DNA of 64,000 bases from assembly GCF_964204645.1 (NCBI RefSeq), contig NC_134035.1, positions 8,216,451-8,280,450 of the forward strand, written 5' to 3'. The position numbers and the translations under genes were made by a program. Position 1 is the stretch's first letter. Each line of letters opens with the position of its first letter. Source of the DNA: Tubulanus polymorphus (taxonomy: Eukaryota; Animalia; Nemertea). Below, piece by piece: positions 29,840-64,000 of this stretch. The notes under the pieces were generated by a model that worked only from the letters and a program-made list of their open reading frames with translations, had not been told where the DNA came from and did not search any database.

Positions 29840-30454
29840 TTATTTTTGCAAGAATTCAACGGGGCCGTAACAGCACTCACAACACAAACAGGCTTGTATT
29901 ATGGAAACGATCAGCCCGGTGAGGAATAACAGGGCTTTAACGATAGATATAGCGTAAAGTCCTGCCAGAGGGCTGACTGGGAAAATCCCAAAAATACCTA
30001 ACACTACAGCTGAATACCAAGACTCAGTAACTAACGCTGCTAGCGAAGCTAATGCGGCAAATATGCTAAGAATCATCAGACCGATGTGAGCGCTGCTTCC
30101 ACAACACGAGTCGTTCTTTCCGAGACTAATGCCGTATATACCGCTTATAACCAGCAGAATCCCTGCCCACAAGCCGCTACCGGCCGCTGCAAATTGCCAA
30201 ATTGCCAGTTCCGACACATTCAAAATCAAAAGCACGATCCCGGCTACGAACGACACGACACCCAACCCCAGAATCGAACCCCGCCTCAGTTGACGGTCGG
30301 GCATCGGGTTAACCTCCATCGGTTCTCGCATGATGTATATTTGTTTCTCACCGGCTGACTGGGTCTGGGGTGGCCCGCTGTATCCTTGATTAGCAGCTGC
30401 ATACGTCGGTGGCGATGCCTCGTAACTCGGCGGCGCTTCGTTTATTCCGGCCAT
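29840..30454 (-). CDS. MS4A/CD20-like four-transmembrane protein
   Basis: 204-aa single-exon ORF with N-terminal PPSY/PPTY motifs, four hydrophobic helices, GSGLWAGILLVISG typical of the CD20/MS4A family, and a Cys-rich C-terminal tail. Confidence 0.75.
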   Translation of the reverse strand: MAGINEAPPSYEASPPTYAAANQGYSGPPQTQSAGEKQIYIMREPMEVNPMPDRQLRRGSILGLGVVSFVAGIVLLILNVSELAIWQFAAAGSGLWAGILLVISGIYGISLGKNDSCCGSSAHIGLMILSIFAALASLAALVTESWYSAVVLGIFGIFPVSPLAGLYAISIVKALLFLTGLIVSIIQACLCCECCYGPVEFLQK

Positions 30455-31552
30455 ATTCTGTCAATAAAAACCTTCTATGTAGAATTCCTAGGACGAAATA
30501 CAATAAAGATCTTCCGTGTTGACTACAACTTTTTACACAAGTGACCAAAATTTGGTGCATTCTGATTCATTATCTCGAAATAGAAATATTCAGTATTAGG
30601 TCCGCGTTTCTGTCGCTTTTGACGAAAGGTCCATTATATTTCATACCACATTGAAGTAGACTTGTACCTTTTGGTATTGTATCTGTCATCTCAAAAATGA
30701 TTGTTTGATTTCCAAAAAGGAACTCAACATATAAATGTAATAGAAAATATACCTTATCTTATGGAATCGTACGTGCAACGGTTTCCAAAAATGTTTAGAA
30801 ATGTCCAGTATCCACCGTGGGATTCATGCGTAAAATTCACTTTCCAACGTAAGACGGTCAACAATGAGGCGCCGTCGACTCATTTCCTTACTGCACCGAA
30901 TACCGAAATGATTGGAAGCGCACGATATTGTCATTCGTAGGGAGGAATGTCTAAGACGACTTATAGAAATTGAATTGCTCTTACGAGCAGATGTGAGGGG
31001 ATGACTACTTTTTGATAACGGGTTTAACGGGATATTTCTGTGATAATGAGCGAACGGTTACGGATTAGGTATCGATCAAAAAATATTTTCTATACGACGT
31101 CCGTTAAATCGGGCGCATTAAAGCCGTTTTTCTGATAACTGCTGAATCCATGCATGGCATTGTGTCCTACCACAGGTTTCCCCTTTGCACCTTCCCCGCG
31201 GATCAACAACTATCCCTGAAAATCTGTGAACGTCGAATATTACGAAATTGTGAGATAAATAATTTAATAAGAAAATAATTTTTCGTCAGATGGCATAATG
31301 GCTTTTGGGCCCAGTTTCACGAAAAAGTTTAAGCCTAAAACGGTTAAGTTTGAATTGTTATCCTCATTGAAAACATGAAGTAACCAATAGCGATTACACC
31401 AAAAATTTGAGTTAAATTTTTGTGTGAAAGTGGGGCCAGTAGAAGGAATTTTGAGTATAGTATTTACTATTATTCTAATTACATTTCATATCACACCACA
31501 TATCATTGATCCTCTACAAATATACGCTGCTTCGAAGTGACAGTGAAATTAC

Positions 31553-36200: not shown

Positions 36201-39200
36201 GTACGTATATCAGCTTGAAACACATACCTATTGATACGAAACTATGTACCAGAAATAATGGCCTTTGAATATGGTAGTCAATCATTGTAAAAACTAATGC
36301 GACGGCTGTGGAAATATTTATAAGGGGGACGCAAACGGAGGCAAAAACAATTCCGGCCAATCACATGTGAGCAGGAATTCTATAACATTCTAAGCAATTT
36401 AACATTCTAAGAATTCCAAGCAATTCAACAGTGTCACAATGGCCCCAGGTTATCAAAGTTCTTGAGATGGCACATGGCACACAGGAATGGGCATATATCA
36501 CCGAAAAGTTTGAAGTTCTGGGCTGAAAAATCATCCGTGATTTCCACGGGTTTTACTTTAGTGTACCTACAAATAACAAGTACGGAGAAATTTGGAAAAT
36601 TCAAGGCGTTTTAGACGCATTTTCCGAAAATAGGAACTAGGAATCTTGTGCCGGGGGATGCGTTCGCACCCAATGCACCAACCTGGGCACAGTCTTTCTC
36701 CTACTAAAACATTTATCCGATTTACACCGATCTGATTTACGCATGCCGGTTCAGCATCCAGTCTTGGTATCATATACACGAAAATATAAAGCGTATGTGA
36801 TACATATTTATCTTTACGTGTTTCTGACTCCGTTAAAACCCGTTAGAATAATGTTTATATACATTGATACCTAGTATGCGATATTTATGGGGTTCTGTGA
36901 GAGTCAATGTGCACTACGTCATCAATCAATATTGGCGTATATAACAAAAACTGGGTTTTGGCGATTATTTTGTTATCAAATATATTTCATAACTCTTATT
37001 ATATATTTGATAAATTTTATCAATTATTTTTGTGAAGATGTGAACTACGCAATAGATATATCGGGGCTAGACTGGTTGCCGGTCAATTCAATTATCGATA
37101 TATTCAGATCCAAAATAATTTTATTGATATTTATTGAACTTTAACATTATATAATTCATATTTTATGGTTGTCGACAATATTAAGCAATACATTTGTTAT
37201 TTCATCAAGGCGTCAATAAACTTCCAAGTTGTTTTTCTCGTTTTAGCCATGATACAGCCGGTGATGGAAAACACGGGCGTTTATTACTCGGACGGCGGGC
37301 TGCTTAATAACTATCCAATCCATGTTTTCGATGGTGAGTCCATTAGAATCAAGCTCGTTAAGATATTATTATATTATATACATACGATAAAGACAGACTG
37401 TTGTAGAATACGAGCTAAAGGAACCAGTGCAGTCTCGGTTTATAGTTTTTCATTTGCATACATTAAAAACCCCGCTGATATCAATTTTCACCATTGCTGA
37501 TAAAGGAGCCACTGCTATATCCTAAGCAGGTAGCCTGTAGAAGTAGATCGGTATACTCATCATGAGAATTTTTGATAAATCTCGCAATAAATTCATCCAC
37601 TCTGAACCACCGAAATCGTTCGAAAACTTTTGGAGCCATATCCATAGTCATAATATAATACTCGGCAACGGCAAAATGTATACACATTTTTTACAATAGC
37701 CAAAGAAAATGTTCATTAAAAATATCTGACCCTTTAGTTTAGAATAACATCAGGGGTCAATCTAGAAATTCTTACACTATCGTAGTCAGGAGAATAACAG
37801 TCTAATATAATATATTCCAATCAAAGCTACATTAACGAAACTATATATGAAGTGTCGTTTGCACAGACTGACTGCAAGGAGTTATTCTTGAATTCTGAAT
37901 TTGATATCTTTCAAAATGTGCCAATGACCTGTAATGCCTTTCGCAATTAAGTATTTTCGTACGTGTAGTCGAATTCGCTGGTTTGAGATGTCGATTATGT
38001 TAATAGTATAAACGTCGTATTAACGCATGTTCTACTGTAAATATAGGATGGTATTTGAGCATGGAAAAAGAGGCGAGTTTTTTGCACATGTTCGACGCGG
38101 AGGAAAGTCAGTTCGGCACTGTTAACCCTAAAACCCTGGGCATCACACTGGTATGTTACCTTTTTCAAACGATCCTCAATCAGCCTTTGTGATAGTGGGG
38201 CTAGTTTTATAGATCGGTATTAACTTTAACCCCTGGGCTAACTCAAATGATAATGAATTGATTTAGCCCTCGGGTTTATGTTAGTACTAGTGTATGAAAC
38301 CAGTCCATTGGCTATTTTCTTATCAACTTTTATGATTTATTTTCAGTTCAACGCTGATGAAAGTGACTGCGTAAAAGCGGACTTCTTTAGCCAGTGGGAT
38401 AAATATCGCTGGCCAGAAGAGCCCGACACTAGAATTTCCAGGTATTACACGGAATAAGATAAGGATATAATGAGCATACAAATCATTGTACGATTTCAAT
38501 TAAAACACACTACCAATTAAGAGTTTTTTAAAGCTAAATTAATATTGAAAGTTATTATATCGCACAGCTCAAATATATCGCGTTCATCGTACAGTTCACA
38601 ATTTGAAATATTTCGAATGAAAAGTTAAAACTTTCTAATAATTTATCGCATCGTGTAATAATATAACAGAAGTTAAAAAGAATTCACAGTTGGAAAATAT
38701 TCTAAAAGATTAGAATTTTGAAATATAACGCGTACAAAGTTGATTATTTCAGTTAATTCTAACAATCTCTATATTTTCTAAGAATTTATCGCAACGAAAG
38801 TGTTCGTTGCAGGTTATTTATTGCAATTGAATCGAATAGGAAAAGTATAAAGTGGGGGAGGGGGGATATTTACCTGCATTCAAGATTTTAACCTAGGGAG
38901 GTTTTACCCGGGGGATTTTTTTAACCCATATATATGCATACAAAAAAAATAAATAAATCTCTTAATTTATCTAAAAAAATGCGGCTAAGAATATAAATAG
39001 TTTGGTTTGTCTCTGATGAAATCTACGTCCTATGCCCCCTACTGTCAAACGAGTATTACATATTTGTATTTGTTTTTGATATGTATATGTTGATGAATAT
39101 GTTTGTATATACTTGTTCTGTGCAGAATTTATTTTTGTGGAACAATTAACTAAACTAAACTAAACTGTTAGCGATATAACAAGCGTAGTAGCGTAATAGT

Positions 39201-46212: not shown

Positions 46213-47331
46213 TTACTGTACCAATTTCCAATGGAAAAAAGTTCCTACGATCAATTTCTTCGCAGCGAGTCGGAATTTATTATTAGTAAAACAATAGACG
46301 ACAAAGTTTAAACAGGAATCGACGACAGTCAAAGCTATAGCGATTTTACGGTAAACATATAATGATTGTGATACACCCAAACCTGGAATAGGTTGGAAAA
46401 ATATTAGCCGGCTATCCTTGCCATAGGCCAGTTTTTCAATAAAGATCAATGATTCGCAGGTGATGTATACAAAAACTAAAGCAAACGACATTCGTAAAAC
46501 TCTCAGTTCTAAACTACTGGCAGCGGTGCTCCTATTCAAGGTTTTTCTGCTCGATAATTTACTGACTATCAAACTGATTATTAGAATCAAATTGAAAAGG
46601 ATCAGTGAACACATCGGTACAATTATACTGGCTACTGTTCCTGTCCAGGCATTTGTATACTTCTGCCATTTCAACAGTACTCCTTTAAAGTAGGGTAAAC
46701 GGCGTCCGTCACGAATAAGCGTCACCCCGGCATGGCCCTTGACACAAGCAAATGGTTTAAGTGCCCATGCCGGTAGCATGTTCGGAATATGACAAAGAAA
46801 TGCAAATATAGTAATAGAGAATACCAGAAAATTCACAACTTTTCGAGTCCAGAATAATCGTGATTTTAAGGGGAAAAGCGTAATGACAAGTCTTTCTAAA
46901 CTAATCAGCAGGACGCACCAGTTCCGAGTTAGTTGAAGAATAAAATATGGTCCATAAGCCACTTGAATAAATTCCCAACCGTAATGCCAGTCCTCATGGT
47001 GGAATAGAACGTCTCCTAGATGTATATAAATGTGCATTGTACGTAGAGGGTACATGATGAATACACTTGTACTATAAGATATATCAAAAATAGCTAAAAC
47101 TTTAATCAAATTATAAACTTCGGGATTGTTCAGCTTCTTCAACACTAGAATTGTGACGGTGTTCAAAGCGATGCCGAGTATCGTGACGGGTCCGTAACAG
47201 AAAATGTACATGTAAACACTAAATTTCAGATCCCATCGGTTTGGTATGGTATTCAGAATCTTTTCGCATCTCCCAGACCATGTTACTACTGTCGGTTGTA
47301 CAATCGTTGAAATATTATTCATATCCGTCAT
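46213..47331 (-). CDS. Class A GPCR, FMRFamide/sex-peptide/myosuppressin-receptor-like
   Basis: 372-aa intronless ORF with 7 TM helices; TM1 GIALN, TM2 LAIFD, TM3 ISLERL (DRY variant), TM7 DSCLNFVVYCFTNNKFR. Confidence 0.88.
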   Translation of the reverse strand: MTDMNNISTIVQPTVVTWSGRCEKILNTIPNRWDLKFSVYMYIFCYGPVTILGIALNTVTILVLKKLNNPEVYNLIKVLAIFDISYSTSVFIMYPLRTMHIYIHLGDVLFHHEDWHYGWEFIQVAYGPYFILQLTRNWCVLLISLERLVITLFPLKSRLFWTRKVVNFLVFSITIFAFLCHIPNMLPAWALKPFACVKGHAGVTLIRDGRRLPYFKGVLLKWQKYTNAWTGTVASIIVPMCSLILFNLILIISLIVSKLSSRKTLNRSTAASSLELRVLRMSFALVFVYITCESLIFIEKLAYGKDSRLIFFQPIPGLGVSQSLYVYRKIAIALTVVDSCLNFVVYCFTNNKFRLAAKKLIVGTFFHWKLVQ

Positions 47332-47512
47332 ATTTCACCTGACTATCTATGAATGTATTTTACGAATGGCGACGACGTGGTAGATGAAATACATCGTCAG
47401 TTTCAAAATTATAGCCCTTACTGCAAGCATCTATCCTGTGCAGACACGTCATCGTAACCAGAATAGCAGAAACTCGCCTTGTTGGATCCGCTGCATAGTA
47501 ATTTTCAAAACT

Positions 47513-47940: not shown

Positions 47941-48310
47941 CTATTGGGAGAGATTTGGCGGCTATTGGGAGAGATTAGTTGCCCTCGTGAAATTATGCAT
48001 TCAAAAGACTTTCGTTCGCCAGAATTGTCGTTTGAGCTCATAAAAAATAAAGAATAAATTCTCGCATGCTCGAATTTATTTTTTATTTTTTACTCACTCA
48101 ACCTCTCGACCTCTGATATGAAAAGACACTTTTCTAATTACTCTAATATTTATATACATGAACATCATATAGATGAATATTATATTAATGAAATCAATTT
48201 TAATAAAAAATTTATATAATAAATGGAGAGTAAACAAGTACATAGTGAGAACAACAAATCATTCTTAGATGGCACCATGATATAGATTTCGAATAAAATA
48301 TGTAAAATAA

Positions 48311-49051
48311 ATGGTAGAATTAAAAGAATATAGAATATATGTAGATTCTAGAAAAATTACAAATCATTTATCTCATAATTTACTGGCACAATTAGATTGA
48401 GAATTTAAAAATTGTGTTGATTTAAAATTATTAAATATAAGTTTATGTCATTCTTTTCATAATATATCGAATAAAAGTCTTGATCATTTAGCTTCTAAAA
48501 TCTATGTTAGAAATTCGACTAAATAGTTTCATCTATATTTGAAACCGGGATTATATAATTTAGAATCATTAGCGCAAGAAATTATTAAAAGAGCTCGTTT
48601 AAAAATTGGCGCATCTAGTCAGTTTGAAATTAAATTTATCAAAAGTGATAGTTCGAATAAAATAAGAATAAAAGTAGGTAATGAACAACATAGATTTTTA
48701 GTAAGAAAACCTAAACTAAACTAAGCTAAACTGTGTGGAATTCTTCCAGATAAAGCTTATTCAAATATTGATACTTATACAAATATAAAACCTTTTACAC
48801 ACTTTTATATTTATTGCAATTCAATTGACCCAACAAAAACTTTCGAAGCAAATAAAGTATATTAAATATTTTACCATTAAAAATATTAAACAATTTGTAC
48901 ACAAATATATTATAATTTAGCTGAATGTGATTTTAAACCTTGTATTTCACAATTTAATAATTTCAAATTAGAAGTAAGAAATCATAATGGATATTCAATT
49001 GATTTAAATAATTTTCCTGTAATTTATAAATTAGTTATAAGATGTAAATAG
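48311..49051 (+). pseudogene. Penton/minor-capsid-like pseudogene
   Basis: MVELKEYRIYVDSRKITNHLSHNLLAQLD*EFKNCVDLKLLNISL is collinear with the 63436 ORF; in-frame stops at 48398 and 48524 plus later indels; C-terminus FKLEVRNHNGYSIDLNNFPVIYKLVIRCK*. Confidence 0.85.
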
Positions 49052-49071
49052 TAATTTTTTGTTATATAAAT

Positions 49072-49326
49072 ATGAATATTACTGTTGGACCGAGTATATG
49101 TTTTGAATTTGATTTTAAACGTGAAAAAGAAAAGAAATTTGGTATTAATGATGTAATAACCCATCTTAAAAATACTACGTTTTTTAATGAAACAACATTT
49201 GATTATGAATCAACAATAAGTAAAGAAGTTAGTAATGTAGAAAAAATTAGTGATTTAATTAGAAATTCTTTAAGATTTTATAAATTAGATGAAGATTTTA
49301 TTATTGATGATATCAAAAAATATTAA
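49072..49326 (+). pseudogene. Viral hypothetical ORF (84 aa, probably truncated)
   Basis: AT-rich ORF directly after the penton stop, preceded by the element promoter-like motif GTAATTTTTTGTTATATAAATATG. Confidence 0.45.
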
Positions 49327-49426
49327 CTGAAATATATAAAAATAAAACTAATAATATCATAAACATTGAATTAATAATAACTAAGATAACTAAATATTTT
49401 GAAGATAGCAATTTTTAAATAAATAA

Positions 49427-49628
49427 ATGAGTGATGATAAGTGTATAATAAATGGATTATATAATGGTGGATTATTATCAGTTGGAAATGTTGGATATAC
49501 AATTAATATATATTATATTATATTATATACAATTAATAATTTCAAAATTAACATTAGCAGTTACGTAATCTAATTTAACAATTGATTATTTGGAAAAACA
49601 AAAATATATTGCTCCTATAAATGCATAA
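49427..49628 (+). pseudogene. Small adintovirus/Polinton membrane-protein ORF, disrupted
   Basis: MSDDKCIINGLYNGGLLSVGNVGYT...IDYLEKQKYIAPINA* resembles a small conserved ORF I recall from group-2 Polintons; broken by an AT-rich duplication near 49500-49540. Confidence 0.5.
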
Positions 49629-49642
49629 TCTGTGTTAAATAA

Positions 49643-50066
49643 ATGGCGTCTGCAAATATTACTATTATGGGATCGGCAATTGTTAACGCTTTAGCATTTA
49701 CAGGTGGTGGTTATTTATTTAAACATATTGAAAAAAATGGTTCATTATCAGAACAAAAAAAGACATAACTTAGCATTAGAAAAATATGTTAAAGCTAATA
49801 AAGAATATAGAGAAAAGAGACAAAATTGTATGGATTATGTTAATGAAGAATTATATAATCAAAATATTTCACATCGAGATTCTAAGTCAGTCGATGATGC
49901 TATGAGTTTATATAACGCAGTAACAAATAAAGAAAAATTACATATATATAAACCTACAATATCAGATTATTATACACCAAGTAATGAACAGAAGAAATAT
50001 GAAATAATATGGATTTTAGGTGGAACAGTTCTTGTTATATTTGTGGCATACAGATTTACAAATTAA
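49643..50066 (+). pseudogene. Conserved adintovirus/Polinton membrane/coiled-coil protein, +1 frameshift in the A7 run at 49755-49761
   Basis: MASANITIMGSAIVNALAFTGGGYLF...EQKRHNLALEK...DYVNEEL...SDYYTPSNEQKKYEIIWILGG has the NALAFTG / ERKRH / SDFYxPS pattern of this family (recalled, not searched). Confidence 0.7.
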
Positions 50067-50195
50067 TTATATATTATATTTTTAGGTTGAGTGAGTAAAA
50101 ATGAAAATAAATTCGAGTGTGTGAGAATTTATTTTTATTTTTTATGAGCTCGACCTTTCGACCTTTGGTCTGAAACAAGACTTATCTTATTACTT

Positions 50196-55631: not shown

Positions 55632-56940
55632 TCGGTTCGTGAAACAACGTTTCCGACATGAAAAATGTTTGATTCCGTCTTTCTGTGCAGGTTCCGTATT
55701 TCTCTGCGTGTCGTTTGGCTTGCAATTTATAATTGCTAATCGTCTTCTAGTGTCCCCAGATTCGAACCGATTAAAGCTGACGAATCACGACGATAAGCAA
55801 TTAATTCGATCGGGGATTTCTAAGGCAGCCATTCCGGGAAGGTATACATACAGTCCTATCGTCCGAGCAGCGTTCACCGTCAAATTGATATTGTTCGAGC
55901 AAAAAGCCCATAGAAAGCGCGGACATTTTTTTAAACCAAAACGTCTCGATAAACTGGCCGTAAATTTAGTAGGAGCATTCTAGAACGTGTGAATATTATG
56001 AATGTGTCATGTGATCTCCCTTACATGTGGAGAAAGGGTCCTTCATCTCTGAAGATATCCCGTGCCGATGGAGGCCACTGGAAACAGAATTGTAGTAGCA
56101 AGCAAAAAAGTGACAATAACAAATTGATTGCAGCAAATGCCTGAAATACGTTTTTTTGGGTTTTCCGGGGACCACGTGATTGTTTTCAACCGATGAAATC
56201 GTCGCTGGACCAGTTCAATCAGATACCAATCAGCTTGCGAAAAATCATCAAGATACAAGCAGTAAACACTGAGTAAAATCGTGCGCCGTTACCGCTTTTC
56301 ATGATATGGATATCATTACTGATGGTAACGTGTAATTGATGACGTATCAAAACCGATCGAAAGCACGTTGATTTGAACTCGTGTTTCGCTCCACGACGCT
56401 ATAGGCGTTATACACGATATACGATATTCACCAAAAGCTGACATTTATTTGAAACTACACGTAGAAAGCACACTCGCGTATACATCGATCGCTACGACTT
56501 CGCTAGCTCGGTAGCGAAATATGTAGCAACGCCGGATTTATTCTGATCTTTTGGGTTCAAGTCTAGTGCTGTACTAACTGGGGCTTTGTGCCTGAATGAA
56601 TGGTACCGTTATATTGCGAGTCTATAATTAGAATTCCTGCTGACTGATTGGCTGAAATTTAAGTCTGCTTCCGTTTGGCCCTCTATAAATATTTCCACAC
56701 CGGTTTATCGCCGTTCCATTTCCATTAGTTTATACAATGATTGACTACCACTTTCTCCACGGCGACACTATTTGGTACATAGTTTCGTATCAATATATAT
56801 ATCGTAATCCGTTCTGAATTATTGGCCTGTTTTATTATAATGAAACAAGTCATTTTATTATAATGAAACAAGTCATTAATACAATTTGAGTAATTAGAAA
56901 AGTAGGGTTTCAGATCAGAGGACGAGAGGACGAGACACCA

Positions 56941-57007
56941 CTCATCACCACAAGTAATTTTTTTTTTCCTACTCATCACCACAAGTAATTTTTTTTCCTT
57001 ATAAATG
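56941..57007 (+). promoter_or_regulatory. Putative viral promoter of PolB: duplicated CTCATCACCACAAGTAATTTTTTT followed by TATAAATG
   Basis: Direct ~31-bp duplication; the same CTCATCAC...TTTTCCTT(A)ATAAATG arrangement precedes the VLTF3-like ORF on the minus strand (63365-63410). Confidence 0.55.
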
Positions 57008-60000
57008 GGGGAGAATGAACACCAGCCAGAAAACAATAATGTTAATAAAAATCAATATTATTGCACATATTGTAAAAAATATGTTGATACATCTAATAAA
57101 ACACGACATGAAAAAACTGCAAATCATATAAAAAATGTAATAGATTTTGAAACTCCAGAAAATTCTAATGAAAGAAAAGAACGATTAGAAAATATGAATG
57201 TGAATGAAATAAAATGTGAAGTTTGTAACGAATTTATAGTAAAAAGGAATTATAATAGACATCTCGAATCACAAAAACATTATAAAAATTTAAATAAAAA
57301 TGTTTTAGGATTAGAATATTTTGATAATAAACCTCAACAAGTAAAAGAATCAACTTCAAAAACAAAATCTATTTCAAATAAACCTTACATGGAAAATGTT
57401 AGAAATTATATTGATTCACTAGAAATAAAAGATACAATTGAAATCTTAGAAACATTACATAGTAAAATTGGTCCTGCAGCTATTATATTTAGATTTTTTA
57501 AAGGTACAACAATAGAAGATTATAGTAAATTTAATGAAATAATAGAAAAAATACTAGATTTGATAACAGATGTTGAATATCCAAAAATAAGTATCTCTGG
57601 GAAAGTAAGTTTTATAAAGTCAGAAGAAAAAATGGATTATAATATTCAAACACACTCTGAAGAAATAATTTCAAAAACACAAATAAAAGAGAAGTTAGAA
57701 AAAATATTAAATGAATTTAAACGTCATATTGAAGAAAGATATTTTGAGGGTTCTGGCTTAACATTGAATGAAATTATATATTTAGATTTAAATGTTTATA
57801 ATACAAAAAGGAATAAAACATCAAAAAGTAATAAAATGTTTAAAAATGATTCAAACTTTATAACAGAAAAAGATATGAAAGCATCAAGTTATATCAAATT
57901 ACCATTTATAACAAAAGCAGTAATAAATATTCAAAATGAAGATAATAAATGTTTTCTATGGTCAATTATTAGTTGCTTACATCCAACACAGGAAAATGTT
58001 TGTAGAATAACAGATTATCGGAAATATGAAACATTATATAAAATTGATCAATATCCAGTAACTATAAAAATGATTCCTAAAATAGAAAAAGTTAATAATT
58101 TAAAAATAAATGTATTTGAATTAATGCAATTACCAAAGACAAAAGGTGAAAATATTAAAGATTATACATTGGAAGCTTTATATTTAACAGAATATTATGA
58201 TGATGAAAATGCTGTAGATTTGTTATATTACAAAAAAGATGAAAATGAACATTATATGTGGTTAAAACAAATTGATTTATTCTTTAGAACAGAAAGTGAT
58301 CATCATAATAAAATTTATCTATGTAGAAAATGTTTATCTAAATTTATGACTGAGAATACATTATTAAAACATAAAGAATTATGTGATAATAAAGATTTTT
58401 GTAAATTAATAATGCCAACAGAAAAAGATTATAAATTGAAATTTACTAATTATAAATTTAAAAATATTGTTCCATTTGTAATTTATGGGGATTTTGAATC
58501 GTTGAATAAAGAATTAACTAATCAAGATAGAAAAGAAATATATAACAAAAAGCAATTATTAAAATCAATGGATAAAGGAAATGAATTAAATGAAGACACA
58601 ATACAAGACCCACCAATTATAAATACAATTAAAAAAGTTCATCAAAGAGCTGCTGCTTATGGAATTTACATCAAATCAAATTATCCCGAATTATATGAAA
58701 GTCAATATATTTCTTTTAGAGGTGAAAATGTAGTTAATGATTTTTGTGATAAAATGATTGAATTAGAAAGTGATTTTACAAAATTATTAAACAAAAATAA
58801 AAGAATAGTTATGACAAAAGAAGATGAAATTGATTTTAATTATGCAACTCATTGTTGTTACTGTGAAAAACGTTTTTATTCATTTGATAAAAAAGTTAGA
58901 GATCATGATCATTTAAATTCAAAATATCGTGGAGCTGCTCATGAAGATTGTAATTTACAAGCTAAAAAAGTAAATTTCGTACCAATATTATTTCATAATT
59001 TATCAGGATATGATACCCATCTATTTATAAAACAATTATCGGGAAAATTGGGTGCAATTAATCAAGAAATAGAAGAATATAATGCTATGAATGAAGCAAA
59101 TGTAAGAAAATATGATTTTAAACTATTAGCTAAAACATCTGAAAATTATATTTCATTTCAATTTGGTTGCATTAGATTTTTAGATTCTTATAGATTTCTA
59201 GCAAGTTCATTAGATAATTTATCAAAATCATTAGTTGATAATGATTTTATTATAACTCGATATTATTATCCAAATGAACAAGATTTTAAATTATTGAGAT
59301 ATAAAGGCGCAATTCCTTATTCATTTTATAAAACACATGATGATTTTAATGTAACAGAATTATTAAAAGATCAATTTTATGATCAATTAAAAGAGGAGTA
59401 TGTGAAAGACGAAGTTTTTAATAGAACATTAAATATTTGGAACCATTTTAAGATGAAAAATCATGGTGAATTAGTTGATTTATATTTAAAATCAGATGTT
59501 ATGATATTGGCAGATATATTTGAAAAATTTAGAGAAGTTAATTTGAATCATTTTAATGTTGATCCTTGTTATTGTTATTCTAGTCCTGGTTTAACCTGGC
59601 AATGTGGTTTAAAATATACAAATGTAGAATTAGATTTATTAAAAGAACCAGATATGGTTTTATTATTTGAAAAATCAATTAGAGGTGGAATTAGTGGTGT
59701 TATGGGAGATAGGTATTTTAAAGCAAATGATGAATATAAATTATTATATATTGACGCCAATAATTTATATGGTTGGGCAATGATGCAACCTCAACCATAC
59801 AAAAATTTTATATTAACAGAAGTTGAAAATGATGATAAAACTGATTGGGAAAGCGCAATTACGAGTTTAAAAGATGAAGCACCAATTGGTTATTTCTTTG
59901 TAGTTGATTTGGAATATCCCGAAAATATTAAATTTAAAACAAGAAACTTGCCATATTGCCCCGAACATTTAGCCGTAGATGATAGTTATTTAAGTGAATA

Positions 60001-62069
60001 CCAGAAGAAAGTAAAACCGAAAGATCATGTTTTTACGGAAAAATTAATACTTACTCAAAATAATAAATACAATTATATTGTTCATTATAGAATGTTAAAA
60101 TTTTATCTAAAACAAGGAATGAAATTAAAGAAAGTACATAGATATATTGAATTTAATCAATCGAAGTGGTTAGAAAAATATATAGATTTCAATACTCAAC
60201 AGAGAACCATATCAAAAACAGATTTTGAAAAAGATTTCTTCAAATTGATGAACAATAGTTTTTATGGTAAAACATGTGAAAATATTAGAAATAGAAATGA
60301 TATTGAATTAGTAAATAATTCTGAAAGATTAAGACATTTACAATCAAGTCCTAGACATTTAGGAAATAAAAGATTTGAAGATTATTTAACAGCAGTTAAA
60401 TTAAAAAGAACATCAATGAAATTTAATAAACCTATATTTATTGGTTCGACTGTTTTAGAAGTATCAAAATTATTAATGTATGATTTTTATTATAATGTTT
60501 TACAACCACTTTTTGGAGAAAAACATATAGAAATATTATATTTTGATTCTGTAACAGCTGACACCCCAATATTATTAAAATATAATAACCAAATATTAAT
60601 TAGAAGAATTTCAGAAATAATTTCAAAACAAAATGAATGTTATATTTCATATGGTGAAAAAGAATTAATACAAATAAATGGATTAATGGATGTTTGGACA
60701 AGAAATGGATGGAAAAAATTAAAGAATATTATTAGACATAAAACAAATAAGAAAATCTATAGAGTTAGAACTAAATTAGGGTTTGTAGATGTTACAGAAG
60801 ACCATAGTTTAATTAAACAAAATGGTGATGAAATAAAACCAACTGATATAAAAATTGGAGATGAATTATTACACAACAGATTTTACCCAAGAATGAATCA
60901 TATGTCATTTGATGAAATAATTGATAATATTTATAATATAGAACCCGAAACATTGGAAGAAAAAGAATATTTTATCAAAGGATTTTTCATGGGTGATGGT
61001 TCAGCAGGTATGTATAAATATGTTAGTGGAACTAAATATTGTTGGTATTTATGCAATCAAGACTTAAAATTATTAGAAAGAATAAAGAAATTCTGTGAAG
61101 AAGTTTATCCAAATAAAACATTTAGAATCATGGATGTTATGAAATCAACAGCAGTTTATAGAATACTTGTAAATAATCCTAAAGATTTTGCTATAGAATA
61201 TAATGATGAATTCTATATTCATGCAATAGTGAAAAGTAATACTTCAACAAAAGAAAAGATAGTTCCAGATTATGTATTAAATGCAAAAAATAATTTAAGA
61301 AAATGGTTCTTCATTGGATTCTATGCTGCAGATGGTTCAAAAAGTTTCAAAAACCGCAAAAACAATATCTTTAGCTCAAAAAGGAAAAGTTGCTATATCA
61401 GGATTGAATATATTATGCAGTTCATTAGGATTTAATATGAATATTGGATTGATTAAATCTAAACCAAATTGCTTTAATTTAAGCCATGTAGAAAATGAGT
61501 TAACAGAAGAAGTTAAAGATTTATTTGAAATATATAACCCAACAGATTATGTTTATGATTTATCAACTGAAGATGGTACATTTAACAGTGGATTTCCATT
61601 AATAGCGGCCAATACGGATGCCTACATACTAAAAATCAAGACAAATAACATAACAAAAGACTTAAAAACATTAAAACATCATTTTGATTTTAGCAATTAT
61701 CCTAAAGATCATGAACTATTTAGCAATGATAATAAAAAGATTCCTGGTAAATTTAAAGATGAATTAGGAGGTGATGAAATGATTGAATTTGTTGGGATAA
61801 GAAGTAAAATGTATTCATATAAAACTAAAGATCATGAATCTAAAAAGTTAAAAGGAATAACAAAACATGTGGTTGATAAACATATAGAATTTCAAGATTA
61901 TATAAAGTGTTTATATAAATCAATTGTAATGAAACACAAAATGAATTGTTTAAGATCAGAAAATCATGAAATGTACATAAATGAAATTGAAAAAACTAGT
62001 TTAAATCCATTTGATGATAAAAGGCATATTTTAGATGATGGTATAAAAACATTACCTTATGGCCATTAA
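57005..62069 (+). CDS. polB: Protein-primed family B DNA polymerase (pPolB) precursor containing an intein; split by a +1 frameshift at ~61339-61362; mature extein product would be ~1332 aa
   Basis: ExoI VIYGDFES, ExoII FHNLSGYD, ExoIII YLKSDVMIL, PolA YIDANNLYG, PolB KLMNNSFYGK, PolC YFD|TDA, C-terminal GKFKDE...RSKMYS...KLKGI...PFDDKR...TLPYGH; N-terminal C2H2 fingers, NEDNKCFLWSI and DHDHLNSKYRGAAHEDCN typical of group-2 Polinton PolBs. Confidence 0.95.
60548..61613 (+). mobile_element. Intein with LAGLIDADG homing endonuclease (355 aa if one base is removed)
   Basis: Block A SVTADTPILL, block B VDVTEDHSLI (TxxH), block C FIKGFFMGDGS, block E FFIGFYAADGS, block F YVYDLSTEDGTF, block G LIAAN followed by extein Thr; removal restores YFDTDA. 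Confidence 0.95.
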
Positions 62070-63367
62070 AACATAAAATCAATATCATCAAACTCGAAAT
62101 CACTATTGGCTTCTTCATTTTCATTTAATTGTTCAGGTTCTTCTTCAATTCCATTTTTCTCATTTAAATAAATTTCTATCTTGTTCCACATTTCATCTCG
62201 CTCTCTTTGTTTCTTTTTGTTTGTTAATTCATCAAATGGAATTATAATATCTAGGTTTAAATAATTTACAATCTTATTTAAAAAGAATTCATAATTTATT
62301 GAATCTGTTATTCTATTTTCCAAATGATACATTAATATTTGTTTAAATATTTTTTTTATATTTTCCATATCTTCTTCTGTTAATTTAGGTTTTTCATAAT
62401 AATCGTTAAATAATAAATATAAATACATTTTCTTTTGTTTTGTGTTAAATGTTGACGGAATAATTGTTTTTATAATATCTTTTTTAGTTATTTCACCATT
62501 TTTATTTTCTATTATTTTCATTTTTTCAAGCCATTGCATATATTCTGGTGTATGATCTTCTATAGAAAATATTTTAAAAATTTCATCTAGATAATTTAAT
62601 TTTGGTTCTATGAGAAAATCTCTAGTTTTTTCTTCACCCCATAAATTCTTTTGCCATCCACATTCAACACAAAATAACACAGCACCTTCTTGTCTTAAGG
62701 TCGCATAACTACATTGTGGGCATTTTCGTTTATAATTTATTGGTAATAGATCTTCATTAAGCTCTTGGTATTTTCTTACGTTTTCTTTATGTTTTATTGT
62801 TCTATTATGTAGATTTGAATTACTTGTTGTAATAATCAATTTACAATATTTACAATAATATGTTTTTCTTGTTAATTCATTATATTGTTTTTCTAACTTT
62901 TCAACTGTTTCTTTATTATCTGGTAACGTTTTCTCATATTTTATTTTTTCTAATAAATTATTTTTTCTTTCATTGAATTCAGTTTCAAATTTATTAGAAA
63001 TTTTATCTATATGTGCTTTACGAAATTGATGATTCTCCCAATCTTCTATATTTTCAGGGTTATATTTTATTCGACAAGGCTCACAGAAATGATCTTTTAT
63101 ATTATCCTTATCATAGAATAAGAAAGGTCTTTTCCAAATAACTTCAGGTTCAACTTCGGCAGATTTACTATCAACATTAGCCGTTGCGCCATTAATTCTA
63201 CACTTCTCTGAATGTTTTTTAACATAATTTCTTGAGAATAATTTATTACATTTTGGGCAGTTTATTTTAGGGGGTTTATAATTTTCATCATGTTTTTTCA
63301 TATGTCGAGCCATATTACTTTTTCTTAGAAGTTCACCACAAATTTCGCATGCTATCTTCTCATCCAT
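62066..63367 (-). CDS. Multi-zinc-finger protein fused to a VLTF3 (vaccinia A2L)-like late transcription factor domain
   Basis: N-terminal C2H2-type fingers; zinc ribbon CPQC-x13-CVECG (62657-62722); C-terminal SINYEFFLNKIVNYL...RERDEMWNKI resembles the VLTF3 S-Y-x-F/Y-x-L-x-K...D-x-x-W-x-K-I pattern; stop overlaps the PolB stop (TTAA). Confidence 0.7.
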   Translation of the reverse strand: MDEKIACEICGELLRKSNMARHMKKHDENYKPPKINCPKCNKLFSRNYVKKHSEKCRINGATANVDSKSAEVEPEVIWKRPFLFYDKDNIKDHFCEPCRIKYNPENIEDWENHQFRKAHIDKISNKFETEFNERKNNLLEKIKYEKTLPDNKETVEKLEKQYNELTRKTYYCKYCKLIITTSNSNLHNRTIKHKENVRKYQELNEDLLPINYKRKCPQCSYATLRQEGAVLFCVECGWQKNLWGEEKTRDFLIEPKLNYLDEIFKIFSIEDHTPEYMQWLEKMKIIENKNGEITKKDIIKTIIPSTFNTKQKKMYLYLLFNDYYEKPKLTEEDMENIKKIFKQILMYHLENRITDSINYEFFLNKIVNYLNLDIIIPFDELTNKKKQRERDEMWNKIEIYLNEKNGIEEEPEQLNENEEANSDFEFDDIDFMF

Positions 63368-63435
63368 TTATTAAGGAAAAATTTTATTAAAATTAATTTT
63401 TAGTGATGAGCGGTAATTTTTTTATGTTATAAATA

Positions 63436-64000
63436 ATGGTAGAATTAAAAGAATACAGAATATTTGTAGATTCTAGAAGGCTTACAAATTATAAATCTCA
63501 TAATTTATTAATACAATTAGATAGAGAATTTAAGAATTGTGTTGATTTAAAATTAGTAAATATTAGTTTATGTAATTCTTTTTACAATGTAACGGATAAA
63601 AGTCTTGAACATTTAATTTTTTCAATCTTTTATAAAAAAAGGAATAAATGGTTTTTTATATATTTAAAACCAGGATTATATAATTTAAATACATTAGCAC
63701 AAGAAATTAATAGAAAAGCTCGAGCTAAATTAGGAAGTGATTCTGGATTTAATATTAGAATTTTAAAAAGTGCTAGTTCTAATAAAATAAAGATTAGGTT
63801 AGACGAACAATTTAAATTTACAGTAAGAAAACCTTTAGGTAAACTGTTAGGAATTGCCCCTGATATTGTTACAGCATACGCAGAAGGTAAATCAAACTTA
63901 ATGCCTTTTACACATTTTTATATTTATTGTAATTTAATCGATCCTACAAAAACATTCGAAGCAACTAAAGATATAACTTGTAATTCTGGTTTACTAAACA
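63436..64000 (+). CDS. Penton/minor capsid protein-like ORF, open to the window end (not in the ORF track)
   Basis: MVELKEYRIFVDSRRLTNYKSHNLLIQLDREFKNCVDLKLVNISLCNSFYNV...KPGLYNL...LGKLLGI...HFYIYCNLID, 188 codons with no stop; motif order fits single-jelly-roll pentons of Polintons/NCLDVs. Confidence 0.75.
   Translation, partial: MVELKEYRIFVDSRRLTNYKSHNLLIQLDREFKNCVDLKLVNISLCNSFYNVTDKSLEHLIFSIFYKKRNKWFFIYLKPGLYNLNTLAQEINRKARAKLGSDSGFNIRILKSASSNKIKIRLDEQFKFTVRKPLGKLLGIAPDIVTAYAEGKSNLMPFTHFYIYCNLIDPTKTFEATKDITCNSGLLN

Follow-up and report, generated by a model that had tools for sequence, protein, structure and literature searches.

The window analysed here, a stretch of 64,000 nucleotides of chromosomal DNA from the nemertean Tubulanus polymorphus, contains a gene for a protein-primed DNA polymerase of family B (PolB) whose catalytic motif is split by an insert, and it raises the question of how an intein came to lie in such a gene of an animal, and whether inteins of its kind live and move there. 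Our answer, which we hold to be probable as a whole, is that the window carries a broken copy of a homing intein family that occupies motif C of Polinton polymerases, that this family likely goes back to one old entry of giant-virus type, and that it likely persists by conversion.

The insert itself, at 60548..61613 of the forward strand, is with near certainty a pol-c intein with a LAGLIDADG endonuclease in motif C of a protein-primed PolB, as judged from reading frames, profiles, structure matches and reads. The N-extein (57005..60547, forward strand) matches PF03175 with 71.4 bits (E 9e-20, cut-off 25.8) and ends with the Tyr-Phe-Asp of motif C; the C-extein (61614..62069, forward strand, delimited by frame and by alignment to relatives) opens with Thr+1, the nucleophile, followed by the second Asp of motif C. 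An earlier reading made from the sequence alone (the sequence-only reading) had described the motif as YFD, followed by an insert from Ser to Asn and then TDA, and the translations agree, with ILYFD/SVTADTPILL in frame 1 opening the insert at 60548 and GFPLIAAN/TDAY in another frame closing it at 61613 (slashes mark the junctions). The length of ~355 aa given in that reading holds only when residues are counted across a frame break, the 1066 nucleotides of the insert not making up whole codons. The intein blocks and two LAGLIDADG motifs that it listed are all present on the forward strand: block A with the Ser1 nucleophile (SVTADTPIL, 60548..60574; translation and TIGR01445), the Thr-x-x-His of block B (TEDH, 60794..60805; translation and relatives), the first LAGLIDADG motif GFFMGDG (60980..61000; translation, profile and structure matches), the second, GFYAADG (61316..61336; translation and relatives), and blocks F and G, YVYDL ... 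GFPLIAAN with the terminal Asn (61548..61613; translation and relatives). Class 1 inteins splice by means of Ser1, the block B His, a terminal Asn and a nucleophile such as Thr+1, and all of these residues (Ser1, TEDH, Asn, Thr+1) are found in the window intein. The residue before the terminal Asn is Ala in the window copy; the 22 complete relatives listed have His in 17 cases, Lys in four and Ser in one.

Both the intein and the LAGLIDADG profiles recognize the insert above their cut-offs: its N-piece scores 36.4 bits against TIGR01445, the intein N-terminal region (cut-off 24.5), and the intein scores 23 bits against LAGLIDADG_3 (cut-off 22.5). The C-terminal piece alone matched no Pfam or NCBIfam model; it is 77% identical over 156 aa to P0186, a relative that is continuous from the nuclease across the same junction, and PF14890, the Hint splicing domain, is above cut-off in relatives P0006 and P0157. 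A predicted model of the N-piece is confident in the nuclease part only (pLDDT 80-95 over most of residues 131-260), the Hint part being poor because its C-terminal strands are missing from the N-piece. The best structure matches of the model are endonuclease-bearing inteins and their like (TliVMA intein, I-DmoI and PI-PkoII first, PI-PfuI also), and the two LAGLIDADG motifs with acidic catalytic residues on an I-DmoI-like fold are, by profile and predicted model, those of a monomeric LAGLIDADG endonuclease. The three closest polymerases (71-73% identical) read YFDTDSY with no insert, and the C-part of the closest intein-less polymerases (75%) aligns from the first residue after the window's insert, so the limits of the intein are exact; its site lies between the Asp and the Thr of PolB motif C, a conserved position that is empty in homologues.

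The window copy is interrupted in an A-rich stretch at 61337..61361 (forward strand), where the reading passes from one frame to another and copies vary in length. The first frame stops at 61433-61435, and the single open frame through both exteins that is seen in P0005, P0006, P0011 and P0142 is absent. At three listed places in the A-rich stretch (depth 113-121), 76 reads differ in length from the window, and the break is therefore not common to all copies; since only 67 of 3630 reads of the same-species run are at least 99% like the window, the latter represents a diverged copy. Programmed frameshifting at the A-rich stretch was considered and set aside, as relatives run continuously through it. 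Judged from its sequence, the window copy as assembled would yield a truncated precursor and cannot be expected to give a spliced polymerase, and it is likely inactive because its frame is broken and Ala precedes the terminal Asn.

That the element bearing this polymerase is integrated in an animal is, in our estimation, highly probable. Its left end (56889..56990, forward strand), supported by reads, depth and a contig, begins AGTAATTAG. The raw reads examined come from a run with the same species label and from a study other than that of the contig runs (about 12% of the run was read); 687 of them carry unlike sequence before 56889 (agreement 0.37), which identifies an element end with many insertion sites. 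Read depth is 5-19 in the host flank and rises to ~400 in the element, with about 345-525 over the polymerase. Tens of element copies with varied flanks are thus present in Tubulanus polymorphus. About 10 kb upstream of the element lies a host single-exon rhodopsin-type GPCR (46213..47334, reverse strand; 7tm_1 weak, cluster score 0.97), a marker of animal chromosomes whose sequence clusters are all eukaryotic, with Mollusca commonest in the best three. Read flanks, depth and this animal-type gene together uphold the sequence-only reading in its view of the element as multi-copy and integrated. That the polymerase with its intein comes from a free virus or a symbiont and was wrongly joined to host sequence is very improbable: among short reads and contigs none links the intein to the host flank 3.6 kb away, and the one contig that covers the element/flank junction (56758-56934, 0 differences) may come from the window's own sample, but the second-study run of the same species contains the flank, enters many flanks in its 687 reads and covers the element tens of times as deeply as the flank, and related families sit on contigs of up to 1.0 Mb.

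The assignment to Polintons rests on the polymerase, the left end and the copy number, the element running past the window end at 64000. Downstream of the polymerase are a 433-aa zinc-finger ORF of the element (62066..63367, reverse strand; ORF and profile) and an ORF that runs off the window (63436..64000, forward strand) with a weak DUF5901 match; no solved relative of the latter was found, and it may have a minor-capsid role. The weak PF03175 score of the window polymerase, and its want of a BLAST match to P0011, would fit the divergent Beta adintovirus class and the stronger score of P0011 the Alpha class; the OTU domain that marks the N-terminus of the Beta class was not detected in the window polymerase. 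Several other features of the surroundings were recorded. An AT-rich island at 48030-50150 represents part of a related element (82% to 63428-63722, 85% to 63893-63970), bounded by 47-nt inverted arms, with an end sequence at 48097-48147 that is inverted relative to the main element's left end and 82% like it. A short direct duplication lies just outside the element end (56831-56880), and a 32-nt tandem unit inside it (56940-57000) occurs once instead of twice in 218 reads. One contig of run X1 links 63855 back to the left end at 56889, which suggests a nested or truncated tandem copy elsewhere, and weak CD20-like and patatin matches at 29840-30460 (reverse strand) and 37138-37500 (forward strand) are probably host exons.

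Intein-plus and intein-minus PolB alleles, sought in reads of the same species, are both present. At 80% likeness, read depth is 458-755 in the flanking polymerase vs 143-266 inside the intein, and five listed joints, with 117 reads between them, pass over the intein; 109 of these reads lack exactly the insert, and the skipping reads show several different sequences at the insertion site. From the lower depth of the intein and the skipping reads, it is present in roughly a third to a half of the element copies.

The window intein is best matched by further protein-primed PolBs that carry this insert at the identical site (P0005 at 62%, P0006 at 48%, P0011 at 49%, P0012 at 48%, and P0016); RNA-primed PolBs come next, at about 42% and lower. 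Its identity to inteins of protein-primed PolBs is 48-80%, as against up to 46% for giant-virus ones, and fragments of related inteins reach 66-76%. Among the 22 complete members listed, whose lineages are 45-65% alike, Ser1, both LAGLIDADG motifs and the terminal Asn are retained in every one, and Thr+1 in all except one, which has Ala+1; another has a one-residue gap in block B. The P0006 cluster comprises 136 sequences; of the 15 listed, whose contigs measure 57 kb to 1.0 Mb, seven are full, six empty and two without the region. The P0012 cluster comprises 121, with three full, one empty and 11 fragments among the 15 listed. Full and empty alleles thus coexist in three multi-copy families (the window's, P0006 and P0012). 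Over the 153 proteins checked for the state of motif C, 106 are empty, 14 full and eight altered or cut, and 25 are without the anchor motif. PolB proteins of about 750 aa that start ~65 residues before motif C (P0035, P0036, P0043, P0055, P0071, L004, L035) suggest that the polymerase gene is split and that its second part holds the intein, and P0202, a 61%-identical Polinton-type polymerase filed under Sulfurimonas sp., is probably from a mis-binned contig.

A single-protein scan of viral contigs gave one weak match for the intein and no relative of the host polymerase; phage records gave two weak partial matches; and a metagenome motif scan gave eight loci, one in a protein-primed PolB (broken) and seven in RNA-primed PolBs. 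The best 150 matches of a profile search over 1.84 billion representatives were mostly RNA-primed PolBs; since just four proteins among them, all short, fit the protein-primed clade by inspection, this clade of inteins is rare. The wider family has other hosts. P0045, which has an ADP-ribosylglycohydrolase domain (PF03747), carries the same intein family at GGD/TDT, a site resembling the polymerase motif; related inteins are found in the type II topoisomerases P0013, P0120, P0123 and P0332, in some cases at xD/TDG and in some cases several per protein; and many RNA-primed PolBs (P0314-P0330, P0345, P0351, P0363) carry two or three inteins of the wider family per protein.

How the intein is maintained can be approached by setting its tree beside that of its hosts. 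On a quick host-polymerase tree of 52 hand-chosen rows, the presence of the intein shows no clustering: it needs 11 changes, where shuffled labels need 11.8 on average, and at least six are forced. The deep order is nevertheless common to the intein and host trees (P0012 and P0142 apart, the window with P0005, P0016 with P0006), and this agreement argues for an old entry rather than a recent capture; the whole pattern speaks for a single early entry followed by long retention, with the intein repeatedly gained or lost at the tips. P0011 adds a further host: its polymerase has no significant BLAST match to the window group while its intein is 45-50% identical, so that one crossing between polymerase classes appears to have occurred. 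The nested place of the P0011 intein, and with it the direction of this crossing, is not established (AU p 0.178).

The local record at the insertion site bears on the same question. P0006 and three empty siblings, compared as protein sequences, are alike at 198-199 of 200 and 90 of 90 upstream residues (288-289 of 290) and at 105-106 of 110 residues far downstream, but at only six of the 10 residues that border the site to either side. The first 10 downstream residues of P0006 match, 10 of 10, those of two members of a family that is about 75% alike elsewhere, and the three empty siblings show three different variants of the site. Such site-local differences can be read as co-conversion during homing or as escape from cutting, and either would imply a working nuclease. 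Homing among Polintons is a good deal more probable than its absence. Against this stands an account in which an ancestral protein-primed PolB, in a protist or a free virus, acquired the intein, which was then passed on with entire elements and precisely lost many times, and which still splices without homing any longer in animal genomes. It would explain the agreement of the two trees in their deep branching, for which loss alone could suffice, the presence of the intein in only four of the 120 best host-protein matches, and the many broken copies, the window's included. It accounts poorly for the retention of both endonuclease motifs in all of the complete members listed across such divergent lineages, for differences concentrated at the insertion site alone in the P0006 family, for the presence of the intein in the unalignable polymerase of P0011, and for full and empty states in three multi-copy families, and we consider it unlikely, while giving it more weight than any other alternative.

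The older history of the intein was traced with a quick tree of 112 rows over the N-piece columns (111 of 153 candidate inteins retained after removal of near-duplicates) and a careful one of 74 hand-chosen rows, three having been left out. All inteins of protein-primed PolBs form one clade among those of RNA-primed PolBs (support 99 in the quick tree, 100/100 with twelve members in the careful one), and the sister of this clade in the 74-row tree is a group of 26 RNA-primed PolB inteins (99/80), most of the RNA-primed hosts in this tree being unlabelled as to taxon. The intein end G-[FYST]-P-[LI]-I-x-x-N is shared by 25 of these 26 rows and the Polinton inteins, the others ending in G-x-G. 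A DNA pattern for this end retrieved 16 IMG/VR contigs, 14 of them named as giant-virus MAGs, and all 16 matches lie in ORFs of PolB size or ORFs cut by the contig end. The sister clade is largely of giant-virus type. Giant-virus MAG inteins also share the motifs that the sequence-only reading ascribed to both the Mimivirus intein and the window's, SVTxDTPI, VWTxxGW, IRHKTxKKIYRV, DVTEDHSL, GFFMGDGS, NQDL, GxYAADGS and DYVYDLxTExG. A giant-virus-type origin of the intein seems to us probable, at about the same level as homing. A cellular donor (a eukaryotic Pol delta or Pol zeta intein like those of Chloropicon), or one in an unsampled lineage, with no giant-virus co-infection implied, is improbable: a same-site relative does exist in the Pol delta of this green alga (PMC10710043), and in a 32-row tree the sister of the protein-primed clade falls into a fork without resolution, with many hosts unlabelled, but the Chloropicon intein, of the wider family, is 39% identical vs 42-46% for giant-virus ones and is placed far off beside IMG/VR viral rows, and of the 16 viral contigs with the end signature 14 are giant-virus MAGs.

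The sequence-only reading had derived the intein from a giant-virus PolB by way of co-infection and had it carried from there into an animal germline. Of this, the crossing from giant-virus to protein-primed PolB finds support in the nesting among RNA-primed inteins, many of them on giant-virus contigs, and the separate intein and extein trees, congruent at depth among related polymerases, make the crossing an old event; the nearest relatives of the window intein are themselves inteins of protein-primed PolBs. A capture on the way into this particular animal does not survive, given nearest relatives that are protein-primed (48-80%) and a clade whose deep branching follows its hosts, a pattern of a single old crossing. 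Entry from a giant virus would need the two genomes to meet in a single cell, and this may have been a protist cell rather than an animal one; a meeting of this kind is documented between Polinton-like viruses and entomopoxviruses (PMC11296320).

The course of events that we infer from these sequences, from donor and age to splicing and homing, may be put as follows. An intein of a giant-virus-type, RNA-primed PolB would have entered a protein-primed PolB once, long ago. Unbroken copies would give a polymerase precursor, from which class 1 splicing would remove the intein and rejoin Asp-Thr-Asp, and splicing would be needed for polymerase function because the insert splits this catalytic sequence. 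The LAGLIDADG domain would cut the empty site in sister elements within its nucleus, and a copy with the intein, serving as template for repair, would pass the intein on together with a few flanking codons. The wider proposition, for which we see about even chances, is that working inteins live and home in animal chromosomes, with Polintons as the pool of empty alleles and hypervariable codons at empty sites as escape, and that they have crossed from giant viruses to protein-primed polymerases and between two unalignable classes of Polinton polymerase, tracking only Asp-Thr-Asp. The Polinton intein would be a molecular fossil recording that Polintons and giant viruses were once in genetic contact. 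With alleles of both states in a single genome, homing, co-conversion and escape of the target can be studied in an animal, and such elements are a source of splicing domains and nucleases that evolved under the conditions of animal cells.

Among inteins of known systems, that of Chilo iridescent virus resides in ribonucleotide reductase. Like the window's, it belongs to a DNA virus of an invertebrate, but it ends in Gln and its iridovirus is not integrated, whereas the window's ends in Asn in an integrated element (as cited in the available part of PMC549080). The PolB intein of Mimivirus, a pol-c allele of 351 aa according to the same partial source, is a closer parallel: the sequence-only reading had equated the two sites, and the YGD/TDS of Mimivirus does correspond to the YFD/TD of the window, with about 350 aa, Ser1, the terminal Asn, Thr+1, the Thr and His of block B and a LAGLIDADG domain in common (PMC549080). 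Its host protein is RNA-primed, resembles Pol delta and belongs to a free virus of amoebae, in contrast to the protein-primed PolB of a many-copy integrated animal element. The viral-like DNA polymerase inteins that Klebsormidium, Tetrabaena and Honda (a labyrinthulid) carry on nuclear scaffolds resemble the window's as viral polymerase inteins in nuclear chromosomes, but these organisms, and Chloropicon with its Pol delta and zeta inteins, are algae and protists, not animals, and their hosts are not described as protein-primed or Polinton in the available portion of PMC10710043. Polinton pPolB2 polymerases, mollusc ones included, have insertions of HNH and VSR nucleases, which like the window's place nuclease domains inside Polinton polymerases (bioRxiv 10.1101/2023.08.22.554363) and have been suggested to stem from intein invasions (PMC11071308); the part of the former text at hand describes no splicing domain in them and contains the word intein 0 times, whereas the window has a full Hint-type LAGLIDADG intein by which the catalytic motif is split, and alleles with and without it occur. 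The Polintons and adintoviruses with Alpha and Beta PolB classes are, like the window's element, integrated in animals and equipped with a protein-primed PolB, and the available main text on these classes likewise uses the word 0 times (PMC8502044). Neither for protein-primed PolBs nor for animal chromosomes did the literature searched, which took in few subscription papers and no supplements that might list such inserts, yield an earlier report of a splicing-type intein, and none appears in the available parts of PMC12220804, PMC8502044, PMC13768754, PMC3671162 and PMC5718144; as far as these searches reach, this is the first intein in a protein-primed polymerase. A 2021 review, in the part available, has inteins absent from metazoan genomes (PMC8529194), and with tens of intein copies on endogenous viruses in an animal this holds for animal host genes at most. 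The window intein is thus of a known kind, found in a host class and a kingdom in which it had not been described before.
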